Virus record (IMG/VR): IMGVR_UViG_2534681701_000015
Origin: a virus
Taxonomy: Duplodnaviria > Heunggongvirae > Uroviricota > Caudoviricetes
Reading direction: 5' to 3' (one strand)
DNA length: 32,028 nucleotides
This document shows, in pieces, positions 1 to 14,058 of this stretch. A program made the translations under genes and the position numbers. The notes under the pieces were generated by a model. The model had not been told where the DNA came from, made no database searches, and saw only the letters and a list, made by a program, of their open reading frames with translations. How positions within the stretch are numbered: position 1 is the stretch's first letter; every line of letters starts with the position of its first letter.

Positions 1-1224
1 ATGGCGTTGTCTGATGCGTGGTTGCGTTCAGTCATTGGAAAGGAACGTGATAAGGTTTTGGTTAAATCCGATCGTGATGGTTTGTCTGTCAGAGTATCAC
101 CGAAAGGTCGCGTAGTGTTCCAATATCGTTATCAATGGGCAGGGAAAGGCGAGCGCCTTGATATCGGTACTTACCCGGCAACTGGATTAAAAGAGGCCAG
201 AGAAGAAGTTATCCGTCTTCGTGGTGAACTCGAGTCAAACCGCAATCCACGATTGGTCAAGCAGGTAGAAAAACGCAAAGCTACTGAAGCCATGACGGTG
301 GAGTCTGTGATCCGTGCCTGGTATGCAGCATATTGTGTAAAAAATAAAAAAGGTTCTGAGCAGATACTCCGCTCATTTGAACTGCACCTGTTCTCTAAAA
401 TCGGGAGTATCCCTCACGATGTAGCTACTTTGCATGATTGGTTAGAGGTCCTGGAGCCTCTTAGCACTAAGACTCCAGCAATAGCAGACCGATTGCTAAT
501 TAACGCAAAGCAGGCCCATGTCTGGGCGTATAAGAGAAAGCTCATTGAAACTCGCCCGCTGTCGGATATCACGGGTAAAGATATGGATATCCGTAAAGGT
601 CAGAAGAAACGGTTTCTGACACATGATGAAATTAAAATCCTTTATGCTGCGATCGATGGTTCTCGAATGGTTCCTAAATACCGGGCCTTCATTAAACTAT
701 TGCTGCATTTTGGTTGCCGTAGTTCAGAGCTAATTACTGCCCGGGTGGACGATTTTGATTTCATTAATAAAGTATGGACTGTACCACCAGAACGACATAA
801 GACTGGGGAGATAACAGGCGAACCGCTAAAGCGACCCATTATTGAACCGGTTGAAGAGCTTATAAAGTACGCTATCTCTATGAACAATGGTTCCGATATG
901 CTTTTTACTAAGGAAGGAAGCAGGGAACCCGTTGGTCGGACATCATTGCAGTCGCTGCCTTACAATTTAATGCAGTACGCATGGCGGCGTTTGGGGTATC
1001 AATTCCCTCATTGGTCTCTTCATGATTTGAGACGAACAGCACGAACAAACTTTTCTGATCTTACTGAGCCTCATATTGCAGAAATAATGCTAGGTCATAA
1101 ACTGCCAGGGGTATGGCAAGTTTATGATAAGAGCGATTATCTAGAAGAACAGCGTAAAGCCTACCAGGCATGGTGGGAGAGAGTTAAATCGATTGTTACT
1201 TGTACTAACTCATGCTCCAATTGA
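1..1224 (+). CDS. int: Tyrosine recombinase / phage integrase, P4-type, complete (ATG at window position 1)
   Basis: 407-aa ORF; N-terminus MALSDAWLRS...VRVSPKGRVVFQYRYQ resembles the arm-binding domain of P4/CP4-57 family integrases; C-terminal HDLRRT and downstream Tyr region fit the catalytic domain. Confidence 0.9.
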   Translation: MALSDAWLRSVIGKERDKVLVKSDRDGLSVRVSPKGRVVFQYRYQWAGKGERLDIGTYPATGLKEAREEVIRLRGELESNRNPRLVKQVEKRKATEAMTVESVIRAWYAAYCVKNKKGSEQILRSFELHLFSKIGSIPHDVATLHDWLEVLEPLSTKTPAIADRLLINAKQAHVWAYKRKLIETRPLSDITGKDMDIRKGQKKRFLTHDEIKILYAAIDGSRMVPKYRAFIKLLLHFGCRSSELITARVDDFDFINKVWTVPPERHKTGEITGEPLKRPIIEPVEELIKYAISMNNGSDMLFTKEGSREPVGRTSLQSLPYNLMQYAWRRLGYQFPHWSLHDLRRTARTNFSDLTEPHIAEIMLGHKLPGVWQVYDKSDYLEEQRKAYQAWWERVKSIVTCTNSCSN

Positions 1225-1395: not shown

Positions 1396-2301
1396 TTATT
1401 GGTCAGGATATTTTGATAGTTCAACTTCAAAAGTTGAATTTTTGTTTTTTAGAACATGATCAACACCTTTATAAAGTTGCCGTAATTTATTTACTGCATT
1501 TATATCAATGGAAGCAGGGGAGAATGCTCGGATAAGATTGTTGAAGATTTCCTTGGAGTAAGCAGATTTCTTCTTTTTATCAAGAGAGTCCATTCTTTTA
1601 ATAATGATTTCTAAAAGATATGTCTTTTGATTGTTATGCATTTTTTCTGAAGTAATAATCAGATACATCATTTCCCCCAAGGTTTTAGAGGCAAAGAACT
1701 CTGGAGATTGCTCTTTCTCTTCTGGTGTCCAGTTATCATAATTGAGGTGTTCTGTTGCTCCTGCCCATATATTACAACGGCTGATTAGCTCATATATTAA
1801 ATAATCAAATCGCATGGGGAACTCTCTATTTACATCTATGCTGCTAGATTTTTCATAACTCTCAAGTATTTCCTTTAGGAAAAAACGATAATACATGAGC
1901 CACATATTGTCTTTTGAGCGTTTGAATATTGCTGTAGATACCATAACATCGAAAAACGTCAATCCAACGAAGATTGGGCATTCCCAACGCTCATCACTAC
2001 TTGAATAGTAATTATCTGGATGATTGTAAAAGCAAGAACTCCCTTTTTGTTTTTTTATGTAGCTAATGACATAATCACCCACAGGTTTCCATATTTCTAA
2101 ATCTATCGCCATGCGAATATCATTTAAATAAAAATTAAGCAAGGTATTACTTTCGTCGAGTGCATACTCCCCTGTATATGAACGATTTTGGTTGTCTCGT
2201 AACTCCCTATACATAATGCTGTTTGGGTTAGATATTAAATACGTAAAGAAATTTGTATTATACTCACAATTATATCTAAGCTGTAAGCAGGTGGCCTTCA
2301 T
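1396..2301 (-). CDS. Hypothetical 301-aa protein, second gene of the AT-rich cargo module; no recognisable motif
   Basis: Uninterrupted 301-aa ORF in a visibly AT-rich segment; no Walker A, HxH or other motif recognised by eye; no clear SD before the ATG at 2301. Confidence 0.6.
   Translation of the reverse strand: MKATCLQLRYNCEYNTNFFTYLISNPNSIMYRELRDNQNRSYTGEYALDESNTLLNFYLNDIRMAIDLEIWKPVGDYVISYIKKQKGSSCFYNHPDNYYSSSDERWECPIFVGLTFFDVMVSTAIFKRSKDNMWLMYYRFFLKEILESYEKSSSIDVNREFPMRFDYLIYELISRCNIWAGATEHLNYDNWTPEEKEQSPEFFASKTLGEMMYLIITSEKMHNNQKTYLLEIIIKRMDSLDKKKKSAYSKEIFNNLIRAFSPASIDINAVNKLRQLYKGVDHVLKNKNSTFEVELSKYPDQ
1420..1450 (+). terminator. Intrinsic-terminator-like hairpin plus T-tract, embedded in the 3' end of the convergent minus-strand CDS
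   Basis: TTCAACT-TCAAA-AGTTGAA stem-loop (1420-1438) followed by TTTTTGTTTTTT (1439-1450) on the plus strand. Confidence 0.4.
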
Positions 2302-2369
2302 AGCTACGTGAGGGTAAGTATCAATTAGATAATGTGAAAAAACCTTTGATTTCAGAAGATTGGATATAT

Positions 2370-2956
2370 TTAATTGAATATCATTTTGTCTTTTGTCTTT
2401 TGTCTTTTGTCTTCATAAGGGAAAAACTTTGACAGAAATCTCCTGACTTTTTTGAATCGTAATTTTTTTACCTTCTCTTCATCCATTTCAATGGGAGATA
2501 ATGAAGGGGCTAAGTAATTATGTACGCGAACATACCATTTTTTATTGCTGATTATATTGAATAGCTGCTCGTGATATTTATCAAAAAGATATCCTAGTTG
2601 TTCTATTTTTTTTGCGCGCAGATATGTTTCTGAAACACTGATCCAACAGGTAAGGTTTGCTTTTGGTAGTATTTTGCCCTGTACTTTAATTCCAAAAAAT
2701 ATAATTATGATACAAAGACAAGTAAAAGCCAATGTATCTTCGTTAAAACCGAGTATCCAAGGGATCGGTTTTATCGGGAAAACACTTAGCAAAACCTTAG
2801 AATATATAACTGTTAATATTGTTGATATAAAAAGATAATGAATGCTAAATTAAATTTAGATATGCGTAACCTTAAATCAACACGTCTCTCATCCGTTAAG
2901 AGAGTATACCAAGCAATAAGTATGGCGAAGACTGCTAGTAAACCATTGGCACCCAT
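2370..2956 (-). CDS. Putative multi-pass membrane protein (about 195 aa if joined), apparently frameshifted at an A5/T5 run
   Basis: ORF 2370-2792 begins at TTG with no in-frame ATG/GTG before the upstream stop at 2850-2852; a 47-aa ORF (ATG 2956, SD GAGGTG, stop 2813-2815) lies in the -1 frame; joining at the A run 2829-2833 gives hydrophobic segments LLAVFAILIAWYTLL, FNLAFIIF..ILTVIY and LAFTCLCIIIIFFGI followed by a basic tail. Confidence 0.45.
2384..2411. repeat. Tandem heptanucleotide repeat (TTTTGTC)x4 inside the 3' end of the membrane-protein gene
   Basis: Four perfect head-to-tail copies at 2384-2411; on the coding strand this is GACAAAA x4, encoding the KRQKTKDK C-terminus. Confidence 0.9.
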
Positions 2957-2996
2957 TATCACCTCTGAATAAGCTACATTTAGACATTCATAAAAA

Positions 2997-3025
2997 ACTT
3001 TAATACTATGTACTTATTGTAACAA
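2997..3025 (-). promoter_or_regulatory. Putative sigma70 promoter for the cargo operon
   Basis: Minus strand reads TTGTTA-N17-TAAAGT (-35 at 3020-3025, -10 at 2997-3002), about 40 nt upstream of the SD/ATG at 2956. Confidence 0.25.
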
Positions 3026-3188
3026 ATTCTGGGTGTTTTCATCAGAATTATCTGCATCATCCTGCACCATTAATTTTGGTGCTTCGCTGGTGGTATTTGC
3101 AACATCTACTTCAGGCACAGAGTAGACAGTCTGATTAGGTTTAGCTCTGTGCCATAGATGTGTTAGCTCACATCTGAACGAATACGTA

Positions 3189-3383
3189 TTACTCAATAAC
3201 TCCCGCAAACCTGTATATCTTGCGTGATGCCCATTTATTTGGGCAGGATTTAATATCAGGATCTGGGAAGTCAGGCCTGTATTTCTGGCCAGTTCTCCTG
3301 TTTACGCTGTTCCAGCGAAGAACTGTCGATACTGAAACGCCACAGAAATCAGCGACTTGTTTAGTTGTCATTAAGTTGTTCAT
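3189..3383 (-). CDS. Small HTH DNA-binding protein, excisionase/AlpA-like
   Basis: 64 aa; MTTKQVADFCGVSVSTVLRW is a helix-turn-helix typical of Xis/AlpA-type regulators; start overlaps the stop of the upstream gene (TAATG). Confidence 0.55.
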   Translation of the reverse strand: MNNLMTTKQVADFCGVSVSTVLRWNSVNRRTGQKYRPDFPDPDIKSCPNKWASRKIYRFAGVIE

Positions 3384-4003
3384 TACTTCACCTCCTGCGG
3401 CGGCTCCGGTAGCGGCATCCAGTGGGTTACTTTCGATGCCGGTTCTTCCCCATTGTCAGTAACTGCCCACCATTTGTTTCTCGAACAATCGTAATACCCT
3501 TCGAAGGTATCGCACTCAGTCCAGCCGTAAGACTTACCCCAACACCAAACATACTGTTTATCGTTCGGCATTCGCTCACTACAGCTTATCCAACCATCCG
3601 GAGTTACCGGAGAGTTGCCCGACAGCTTGTTCAACTTATAAGTCTGGCTTACAGGTTTGGCACCATGAAGCATGGTGGCGCGGCAGGCGTTCCAGCCTTC
3701 ATCAAAACCGACTATGCCATTATTTAAAGACGGACGAGCATCTGGCACCACCAGTACTGGCTTGGCTATATATAGCGGCTGAACATACCAGCCCTTTGAT
3801 AACCAACTGTCAGCAATGTTTTTGCTCCTGGTTATTGCCGGAATACCTAAGCCATTGTCTGAATGCAGCCATGCCACCGGCTCCTCTTCCAGCGATGCCA
3901 GAGCAATTTCATAAGCACGGCGCTCAATATCGTCTCGAATCTCTAGGCTGCTGATTCGTTCTTTGATTTCTTTAATCAGTTCTTTATTGGTAAATGTGGT
4001 CAT
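3383..4003 (-). CDS. DUF551-family phage protein
   Basis: 206 aa; C-terminal THWMPLPEPP is characteristic of DUF551; translationally coupled to its neighbours. Confidence 0.65.
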   Translation of the reverse strand: MTTFTNKELIKEIKERISSLEIRDDIERRAYEIALASLEEEPVAWLHSDNGLGIPAITRSKNIADSWLSKGWYVQPLYIAKPVLVVPDARPSLNNGIVGFDEGWNACRATMLHGAKPVSQTYKLNKLSGNSPVTPDGWISCSERMPNDKQYVWCWGKSYGWTECDTFEGYYDCSRNKWWAVTDNGEEPASKVTHWMPLPEPPQEVK

Positions 4004-4365
4004 TATGCTCCAGCCTCCGGCGCTTTAGGTATTACTGCCCAGTGAGTGATATTGAAGTTTTCAAGGTCCCCGACCTGAAATGTCCACTGCCATTCTCCGG
4101 TTTCTTTTTGTCCCCAGGTGTACCAGAGAGAACGCCAGCCAATCAGCCAGCCTTCTCCGTTAGCATCAAGTAACAGAACACTTTCATTTGCTGGTGGCAG
4201 TTCAGCTGACACTGGTATTATTTTGTTTTCCAGTGCCGCACATTTAGCTTCAAGCGCGTCGAATTTACGTACCAGGTACTCAGCATTTGTTTCGTTCACT
4301 TTCAGATCTCGCGGTACACATTTCCCGCGAAGAAACCCTTCCATTTCGAAAACATTCATGCGCAT
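4003..4365 (-). CDS. Hypothetical early-left phage protein (120 aa)
   Basis: ORF overlapping the HD gene by 10 nt and the DUF551 gene by 1 nt; C-terminal ITHWAVIPKAPE is DUF551-like. Confidence 0.5.
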   Translation of the reverse strand: MRMNVFEMEGFLRGKCVPRDLKVNETNAEYLVRKFDALEAKCAALENKIIPVSAELPPANESVLLLDANGEGWLIGWRSLWYTWGQKETGEWQWTFQVGDLENFNITHWAVIPKAPEAGA

Positions 4366-4904
4366 TTGCGTAACTCCGATAACTCGTTAAAACGTTCCAT
4401 AAACATCCCGTAGGCATGGCCAGGTGCCAGTGGAATCACGTTGAACATCTCTGTTGCCGGGATGCCTTCCAGTACAGGCCAGAAAGAGCCATCATCAAGC
4501 CCGAGATCGCGGCGTTCGGTTGCCAGCATGATAAGATCGGCATATTTCACGGGCGTACTCATAACTGGGGGTAACCCGTATTTCTCACGGATTACGGCAT
4601 CTATTTTTTCTTCCATCCGTTTATAGTCAGGAAGAAGACGTTTCAGTGGTGCGGGAATGTCCTGGCAATACGCTTCTGTTGCATCATGCATTAACGCTTC
4701 AAAAGCAAATTCCTGCGGCACCAACTGGCTGCAAAGAACCGCATGTTGGGCGACGCTGTAGAAGTGTGAAAGATGTCCTGCAAAGCGACAGATATTTGAA
4801 AGGGAAACCGCGATATCGTTAATAACGATGTCGTCTTTATTTATCTTGTCATAATAAAAATGCTTCCCGGAAAAAGTTTTAATAAATGACATTTCGTTCT
4901 CCAC
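4356..4904 (-). CDS. HD-domain phosphohydrolase (YfdR-like)
   Basis: 182 aa with H...HD metal-binding signature (SVAQHAV ... LMHDATEAY); position matches the yfdR slot of CPS-53-like early-left operons. Confidence 0.7.
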   Translation of the reverse strand: MENEMSFIKTFSGKHFYYDKINKDDIVINDIAVSLSNICRFAGHLSHFYSVAQHAVLCSQLVPQEFAFEALMHDATEAYCQDIPAPLKRLLPDYKRMEEKIDAVIREKYGLPPVMSTPVKYADLIMLATERRDLGLDDGSFWPVLEGIPATEMFNVIPLAPGHAYGMFMERFNELSELRKCA

Positions 4905-4968: not shown

Positions 4969-7414
<2,446 letters not shown>

Positions 7415-13022: not shown

Positions 13023-13243
13023 TCCGGAATATTTTCAAACGTTTTACCAATCAGACTTTCCGTTGTCCTCGTCCGGGTCAGTGGTACACCACGCCTGCAG
13101 GGCATGTTCTACGTGTTAGCCTGGTTGACCGTGAATGTCAGAAGGTGGTTTGTGAACCGCTGGGCCGTAATTACCGCGTCAGTATGCCGCTTATAGCCTT
13201 TCGCTCCAGAAAAAACATGAAGCATCTCGGAGGTGCAGCATGA
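13019..13243 (+). CDS. Small Cys-containing hypothetical protein (74 aa)
   Basis: ATGA overlaps with both neighbours (Rha stop, O-like start); contains C-x24-C-x4-C. Confidence 0.45.
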   Translation: MIRNIFKRFTNQTFRCPRPGQWYTTPAGHVLRVSLVDRECQKVVCEPLGRNYRVSMPLIAFRSRKNMKHLGGAA

Positions 13244-14058
13244 GTATGGAGCTGATGGTTAAAGCGATGAAAATTCGAGTGGGTAATCCATTGCGAAAAC
13301 TGGTTCTGATCAAGCTGGCTGATAATGCCAGCGATCAGGGTGAGTGCTGGCCCAGCTACCAGCATATTGCTGACCAGTGCGAGATTAGCAAACGTTCTGT
13401 GATGAATCATATTGCGGCCCTTTGTGAGTCCGGGCTGGTAAAAAAAGTCACCCGGAAAGGTGAAAAAGGTAACTCAAGTAATATCTATCTCCTTCATCTG
13501 GATGGTGCAGGAGATTCACTAGGGGGTAGTGCAAATAATTCACTATCTGGTGCAGCAAATTCACCAGGTAGTGCAGGAGTTGCACCAGGGGGTAGTGCAG
13601 GAGATTCACCCAGAACCAGTCACTCTTTTGAACCAGTCAAAGAACCAGTCAATGAACCAATAGCTGTTGGTGCATCAGTTGATGAGTCCGTGCGAGTTCG
13701 TTCAAACCGACCGGAATATTCTCCGGAGTTTGAGCAGGCATGGCTGGCATATCCCAAACGTGCTGGTGGCAATTCAAAATCTGCAGCCTTCAAAGCCTGG
13801 AAAGCCCGTTTGAATGAGGGGGTAAACCCCGAAACCATGCTGGAAGGTGTGAAACGCTATGCGGGCTGGGTATCTGCAATGGGTAACAGCGGCACACAAT
13901 TTGTGAAACAGGCTGTCACGTTCTTTGGTCCGGATCGTCATTTCGAAGAATCCTGGGAAGTTCCTGCGGTATCTGCAGCCAGACGTGAGGACCCGTACTT
14001 CAAATCCAGTTACGACAACGTGGACTACAGCCAGATCCCGGCAGGATTCAGGGGGTGA
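13240..14058 (+). CDS. Replication initiator, lambda-O-like organisation (N-terminal winged HTH, low-complexity linker encoded by iterons, C-terminal domain)
   Basis: 272 aa; SD GGAGG 6 nt before the ATG; the linker GAGDSLGGSANNSLSGAANSPGSAGVAPGGSAGDSP is encoded by direct DNA repeats. Confidence 0.6.
   Translation: MSMELMVKAMKIRVGNPLRKLVLIKLADNASDQGECWPSYQHIADQCEISKRSVMNHIAALCESGLVKKVTRKGEKGNSSNIYLLHLDGAGDSLGGSANNSLSGAANSPGSAGVAPGGSAGDSPRTSHSFEPVKEPVNEPIAVGASVDESVRVRSNRPEYSPEFEQAWLAYPKRAGGNSKSAAFKAWKARLNEGVNPETMLEGVKRYAGWVSAMGNSGTQFVKQAVTFFGPDRHFEESWEVPAVSAARREDPYFKSSYDNVDYSQIPAGFRG
13504..13651. repeat. Iteron-like direct repeats inside the initiator gene: candidate replication origin
   Basis: Five imperfect ~20-bp repeats (core GT(A)GTGCAG..ATTCACC) at 13504-13610, then three perfect GAACCAGTCA copies at 13613, 13630 and 13642. 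Confidence 0.55.

Follow-up and report, generated by a model that had tools for sequence, protein, structure and literature searches.

In E. coli and Shigella, decaying prophages and AT-rich genes of horizontal origin contain frameshift pseudogenes that formed at simple sequence repeats. A reversible use of such repeats is represented by neuO, a cargo gene of prophage CUS-3 of E. coli K1, which was described as a 'mobile contingency locus' containing the heptanucleotide 5'-AAGACTC-3' (PMC13001214). The slipping tract is located at the 5' end of neuO, and the full-length enzyme is produced only with multiples of three units. In 64 complete genomes the tract comprises 3 to 53 units (commonly about 20), with 65.6% OFF; the ON and OFF states are intermixed, and cells with 20, 21 and 22 units were found in a single culture (PMC13001214). 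A study of tolA of E. coli reportedly used in-frame repeat copies for modulation of the protein (PMC3477136).

We analysed a 32,028-nt stretch of DNA of a tailed phage (Caudoviricetes; IMG/VR record IMGVR_UViG_2534681701_000015), referred to here as the window. Direct reading of the sequence revealed a perfect (TTTTGTC)x4 repeat at positions 2384-2411, in the context CA(TTTTGTC)4TTCATAAGG, which was reported by Tandem Repeats Finder (TRF) at 2384-2413 (period 7, 4.3 copies, 100% matches, no indels, consensus TTTTGTC). The coding strand is the minus strand, on which the unit reads GACAAAA. The repeat is contained within the last 14 codons of a 140-aa ORF (2370-2792, minus strand; tail ...YEDKRQKTKDKMIFN*), whose end lies 68 nt from the start (position 2301) of a 301-aa ORF situated downstream. 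TRF, direct reading and the ORF list bore out the initial annotation of this DNA on three points: the location of the repeat, its freedom from mismatches and the gap of 68 nt to the 301-aa ORF. A pattern of three TTTTGTC units, with up to two mismatches allowed, has no second site in the window and was matched in none of 100 dinucleotide-preserving shuffles. A 14-15-bp near-repeat, ATTGAATATCATTTA (2359-2386; 1.9 copies, 85% match by TRF), adjoins the heptamer tract and overlaps its start. A role for the repeat on the plus strand was considered and rejected, as that strand carries a trivial 32-aa ORF alone at this site.

In E. coli strain 510016 the corresponding region is a single 1548-nt ORF, encoding a protein of 515 aa (WP_001406835.1). 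The 510016 form (locus L001, 647-2194) was used as the intact reference allele, and alignment of the window to it revealed three differences only: (i) a 14-bp insertion at 2384-2397, equal to two additional heptamer units, (ii) the lack of one A at approx. 2828, which leaves an A5 run at 2829-2833 in place of A6, and (iii) one SNP, at position 2125. Since the window aligns to the intact allele with no more than these differences, the ORFs of 49, 140 and 301 aa are fragments of one gene, present in three different frames. The relevant features of the window are the following:

1..1224, plus strand: prophage tyrosine integrase (Pfam)
1396..2962, minus strand: disrupted cargo gene of approx. 515 aa (intact in 510016; homologues of 509-559 aa; product on 29 contigs)
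1396..2301, minus strand: C-terminal fragment, 301 aa, the conserved all-alpha domain of the gene (ORF list, homologues)
2370..2792, minus strand: middle fragment, 140 aa from TTG (ORF list, allele modelling)
2384..2411, minus strand: heptamer tract (GACAAAA)x4 (TRF, alignment to the intact L001, allele modelling)
2813..2962, minus strand: N-terminal fragment, 49 aa from GTG or 47 aa from ATG at 2956 (ORF list, alignment)
2829..2833, minus strand: A5 run where the intact allele has A6, the other of two independent frameshifts (alignment, lineage comparison)

The N-terminal fragment contains the first hydrophobic helix and ends early owing to the A5 frameshift. The middle fragment follows the true frame of the gene up to the expanded repeat, where, as modelling of the alleles indicated, the reading frame is shifted by the 14 inserted bp and a stop codon results at 2370-2372. 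What had been annotated as a small membrane gene with the repeat at its 3' end, followed by a separate 301-aa gene, is thus a single gene (WP_001406835.1), in which the tract occupies codons 182-186 (approx.) of 515, i.e. a mid-gene position. The exact 140-aa product was found on one Logan contig, the 301-aa product is a separate gene call on 21 contigs, and the 47-aa N-terminal fragment, diagnostic of A5, is present on at least 24; the intact form of 515 aa is encoded on 29 contigs. In annotation, the ORFs at 1396-2962 are best combined into one entry, flagged as a disrupted gene.

The gene is located between int and a xis-like HTH gene (3189-3383). Its 515-aa product has three N-terminal hydrophobic helices followed by an all-alpha domain, and it gave no family match in Pfam, NCBIfam or PADLOC. 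An AF2 model, built on a Citrobacter homologue (P0002, 84% identical), is confident (pLDDT 88) and all-alpha; its fold matches generic helical-repeat structures and none specifically. The family is well conserved at full length (509-559 aa), with members, always labelled hypothetical, in Citrobacter, Yersinia, Sodalis, Leclercia, Morganella, Pantoea, Enterobacter, Pseudomonas, Vibrio, Shewanella and others. They are encoded by a lone cargo gene of prophages, of a conjugative element (in Sodalis, near ArdC and SMEK_N genes) or of a variable island (in Pseudomonas). The position and this mobile-element context make a membrane-anchored exclusion or defence protein plausible as a guess.

Elsewhere in the window, a replication-initiator-like gene (13240-14058, 272 aa; Pfam HTH_36 and DnaD_N) contains imperfect tandem repeats at 13525-13659, which overlap one another and have periods of 21, 24 and 12 bp. 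An iteron-type origin is embedded in the lambda O gene, and by analogy the repeats at 13525-13659 may constitute such an origin.

Alleles containing 0-7 heptamer units were rebuilt in silico, and the result for 8 units follows from the same arithmetic. The frame is maintained only with 2 or 5 units (also 8), which join the 140-aa and 301-aa ORFs into one, while 1, 3, 4, 6 or 7 units truncate the product: 3 units bring an immediate TGA (tail …DKRQKTK*), and 1 or 4 units give the tail …MIFN*. Translation of the alternative alleles therefore bears out the prediction of the initial annotation that a change in unit number would alter the frame, and it shows the two ORFs to be linked through the repeat. 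As in a contingency locus, the unit is not a multiple of three and lies inside an ORF whose frame it sets. With the A-run repaired, the 2-unit allele has 517 codons and the 5-unit allele 524, counted from the GTG start. When A5 is retained, 2 or 5 units permit a product of 460 or 467 aa from the TTG start at 2792; a 460-aa protein of this kind, WP_249823524.1, is annotated by PGAP and is encoded on 34 contigs. Given this possible product, the A5 allele is not necessarily a dead one.

The copy number of the repeat was then compared across strains, a check proposed in the initial annotation, and it was found to vary, with alleles of 2, 3 and 4 units. The region was compared by megablast with 5,426 complete E. 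coli genomes, of which 35 contained it in full, in copies 12-14 bp shorter than that of the window. All 35 have 2 units (by length; four checked at base level), as do all 24 Stx1a and Stx2c phage records (by length; two checked at base level), three IMG/VR contigs and three metagenome contigs, the last six identified with a flank-anchored gapped pattern able to catch 0-4 units. Thus, in this first survey, all 65 other records carry the 2-unit, in-frame count at the tract, and 12 of them were confirmed at base level. A long tract kept in the functional state, which would be expected of a contingency locus, was not found in these 35 genomes, 24 phages and 6 contigs, where the functional allele has 2 units. 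A scan of viral contigs for 5 or more units returned 13 loci, all with unrelated flanks; the gapped DNA pattern had no match in a contig collection with one genome per species, and a literature search on the Stx phage records LC7278xx gave nothing relevant.

Expanded alleles were found by look-ups of their exact products in NCBI, Logan and ENA assemblies. The contigs recovered all carry the SNP background of the window and A5. An exact protein look-up overlooks any allele whose SNP background or called start codon differs. Within this near-identical lineage, 4 units are present on approx. 15 contigs and 3 units on approx. 9, assuming that the 'similar places' not shown individually match the state of the shown locus. 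The 3- and 4-unit prophages differ by 0-3 SNPs over approx. 6 kb and may be arranged by two markers, the presence of an IS21 element and the base at position 3058:

Group I, IS21 inserted at approx. 5100, C at 3058: window, L031, L036, L038, L041; 4 units
Group II, IS21 absent, T at 3058: L030; 4 units
Group II, IS21 absent, T at 3058: L037, L039, L040, L042, L043; 3 units

One further 3-unit prophage, L032/L044, could not be assigned to a group, as position 3058 lies inside its deletion. Since the 3- and 4-unit states are both present on the T3058, IS21-free background, two to three separate slippage events are required. Under either rooting, three unit-steps from a 2-unit ancestor are needed, among prophages otherwise a handful of SNPs apart. 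Copy number therefore differs among close isolates, as it does in contingency loci.

The IS21-family element of the window (5161-6962; istA 5940-6962, istB 5161-5943) is inserted in the prophage early region. Among the related contigs its insertion is confined to an all-4-unit sub-lineage, and it thus serves as a lineage marker. In prophage L032/L044 (GCA_049980085.1), a deletion of approx. 1.9 kb downstream of the cargo gene (window positions approx. 3011-4900) has removed the genes xis-like, DUF551 and yfdR-like, a further sign of decay at this prophage end.

Two additional alleles are represented by protein records. P0067 (189 aa), encoded on four contigs, one of them a 5.3-Mb genome, ends in …YEDKRQKTK and has an intact A6-type N-terminus on a different SNP background (V38); judged from the protein sequence, it is an independent 2-to-3 expansion in a second lineage. 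The other, on one contig, is a 2-unit product with A5 and the window lineage's own amino-acid background, which suggests, without proving it, that A5 preceded the expansion of the repeat. The products predicted for 5 units (467 and 522 aa) and 6 units (344 aa) are absent from a collection of 15 billion proteins. Every expanded allele found, whether of 3 or 4 units, is OFF, and the lineage of the window additionally has A5; because this is a second frameshift, no slippage of the heptamer can restore the full protein there. ON and OFF states among variable alleles of an otherwise intact gene, a further property of contingency loci, were consequently not observed.

The heptamer tract is not the sole site at which the gene is broken. 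The gene has a G+C content of 33% (window, 50%) and includes 11 runs of at least five identical bases. Among the 35 complete genomes, 19 retain the 1548-nt length, and each of the other 16 (46%) has a frameshift in one of three homopolymers: T6, T8 or the A6 run already described, which is A5 in five complete genomes. The remaining runs with frameshifts are as follows:

1641..1646, minus strand: T6 run; T7 in six complete genomes (O103:H2 strain 12009 group) and in Stx1a phages
2463..2469, minus strand: T7 run (coding A7, ...EEKVKKLRF...); protein fragments P0055-P0058
2606..2613, minus strand: T8 run, a slippage hot spot; T9 in five complete genomes, T7 in L039

The change of T6 to T7 splits the gene into parts of 436 and 81 aa. 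A5 is present on two SNP backgrounds, that of the window's lineage (every 3- and 4-unit relative) and that of L003, so that it either arose twice or was moved by recombination. At the A7 run, E. coli protein fragments are frameshifted in both directions and divergent homologues (P0055, P0056) are also broken; these variants came from a search with the 140-aa fragment, which returned few proteins because of its word prefilter. The coding sequence of this run, GTA AAA AAA TTA, is in form an A_AAA_AAA slippery heptamer. The frameshifted products P0055-P0058 are most simply explained by DNA indels. With independent ±1 shifts at four homopolymer runs in other lineages, the gene as a whole is an indel hot spot. 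The homopolymer lesions are inherited along lineages, and this is the pattern of fixed mutations, not of rapid switching. Overall, independent lesions disrupt a conserved, membrane-anchored cargo protein of Stx-type prophages in almost half of the complete genomes carrying its gene, and this pattern makes the intact 515-aa protein a reasonable candidate for a role in phage exclusion or for one with a fitness cost.

The origin of the repeat was traced by comparison with orthologues. In the intact E. coli allele, the codons GAC AAA AGA CAA AAT (D K R Q N) comprise two perfect units. In the Sodalis orthologue, the one whose DNA was inspected, the corresponding codons are GAC AAA AAC CAA GAA (D K N Q E), without a second unit; for this reason, the two-unit tract appears to be a by-product of codon choice in the E. 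coli allele. Judged by this one orthologue, the family does not retain the repeat at the DNA level. At the protein level the homologues vary as DK[RSNGE]Q, within a moderately conserved P-x-x-D-K-x-Q stretch, which forms a loop ahead of a helix (184-198) in the AF2 model built on the Citrobacter protein.

It is probable that the locus is the result of slippage-driven decay (pseudogenisation) of one AT-rich prophage cargo gene and not an evolved on/off switch. The D-K-R-Q-N codons of the functional allele spell two GACAAAA units by chance. In the lineage of the window, a 1-bp deletion in the A6 run would have come first, its place in the order being deduced. The two-unit tract would then have slipped to 3 and subsequently to 4 units, gaining 7 bp each time, with nothing to remove the changes, and the outcome would be three ORF fragments in three frames, presumably non-functional. 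On the sequence evidence the locus fits a frameshift pseudogene in every respect tested: an intact allele and orthologues are present (WP_001406835.1; 29 contigs; family of 509-559 aa), and there are two disabling indels (14 bp gained at 2384-2397, 1 bp lost at 2829-2833). The repeated independent losses would be due either to relaxed selection or to a cost of the gene that is selected against. What counts against decay is that the tract changed by at least three unit-steps among prophages a handful of SNPs apart over approx. 6 kb, and is thus unusually mutable for E. coli.

Selection for loss, which is compatible with decay, is a possible explanation that we advance tentatively. The gene would be costly or toxic, encoding e.g. 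an abortive-infection or exclusion protein, and its slippage sites would be reused for inactivation. This would account for the fact that alleles of over 99% identity have undergone six or more independent frameshifts (T6 to T7, T8 to T9, T8 to T7, A6 to A5 on two backgrounds, 2 to 3 units on two backgrounds, and the A7-run shifts), for the 46% of complete genomes that are frameshifted and for the breakage of the divergent P0055 and P0056 at the A7 run. However, the gene has its full size in 19 of the 35 complete genomes, its family shows good conservation from genus to genus, and an AT-rich gene with 11 runs of five or more bases would gather such indels under relaxed selection as well.

It is unlikely that the repeat is a true contingency locus, in which heptamer slippage would reversibly set the gene ON (2 or 5 units) or OFF (1, 3 or 4 units) as a form of bet-hedging resembling neuO in CUS-3. 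The initial annotation regarded the architecture as that of a contingency or phase-variable locus, and two parts of this description stand: the tract slips, and its unit, which is not a multiple of three and lies inside an ORF, obeys the expected frame logic. Near-identical prophages have 2, 3 or 4 units, the 3-unit state arose twice independently, and neuO itself (PMC13001214) is a precedent in an E. coli prophage cargo gene. Moreover, the tract is clearly mutable, and a reversion to 2 units would resemble the wild type and is hence invisible in assemblies. The description fails in that the ON state has just 2 units, invariant in 65 records, compared with 3-53 in neuO, whereas all expanded alleles are OFF, and in the window's lineage they are accompanied by a frameshift (A5) that slippage cannot repair. 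Furthermore, the protein collection contains no product of 5 or 6 units, the repeat is not kept in orthologues, judged by that of Sodalis, and homopolymer runs break the same gene as often, these breaks being stably inherited along lineages.

There is likewise a slim chance that the locus is a nascent mobile contingency locus, in which a chance two-unit heptamer within a costly exclusion or defence gene is starting to expand and contract. If so, lysogens would gain a heritable, reversible ON/OFF choice, and E. coli prophages would have, besides neuO, a second heptanucleotide switch of independent origin, showing how such switches begin.

That the additional units are assembly or sequencing errors in a low-complexity stretch, for which the general difficulty of assembling repeats is the sole argument, is effectively refuted, because the tract (28 bp) is far below read length, the 3- and 4-unit alleles recur in independent NCBI assemblies and in Logan re-assemblies of several projects (SRR446…, ERR4899…, SRR11280910), and they co-segregate with the SNP and IS21 markers.

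Of the described systems, neuO shares with this locus a 7-bp coding repeat in a cargo gene of an E. coli temperate phage, strand slippage and a full-length product at every third unit count. The existence of neuO in CUS-3 (PMC13001214) also means that the architecture is not as foreign to an enterobacterial prophage as the initial annotation had supposed. The two loci differ in several respects: (i) the ON allele described here has an invariant 2 units (65 records), and the expanded states seen, 3 and 4 units, are OFF, (ii) the repeat lies at codon 182 (approx.) of 515 and not at the 5' end, (iii) the allele of the window has a second frameshift and (iv) the protein, which lacks a Pfam match and is all-alpha in the model of its Citrobacter homologue, is unrelated to NeuO, a hexapeptide-repeat O-acetyltransferase. 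The repeat thus lacks the hallmarks of a neuO-type locus, i.e. a long functional tract, ON and OFF states among the variable alleles, an intact gene and conservation of the repeat. By these measures it does not in itself qualify as an evolved phase-variation switch, and its biological interest is modest.

With tolA (PMC3477136), the locus shares a coding tandem repeat whose copy number varies between E. coli strains; the copies in tolA are reportedly in-frame, whereas the 7-bp unit shifts the frame and truncates the protein. The features shared with frameshift pseudogenes at simple sequence repeats are an intact orthologue, several independent indels in homopolymers and short repeats, inheritance of the lesions along lineages and an IS nearby. 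Unlike the typical one-off lesion of such pseudogenes, the short 7-bp tract has changed several times, slipping repeatedly within a near-clonal lineage of E. coli.
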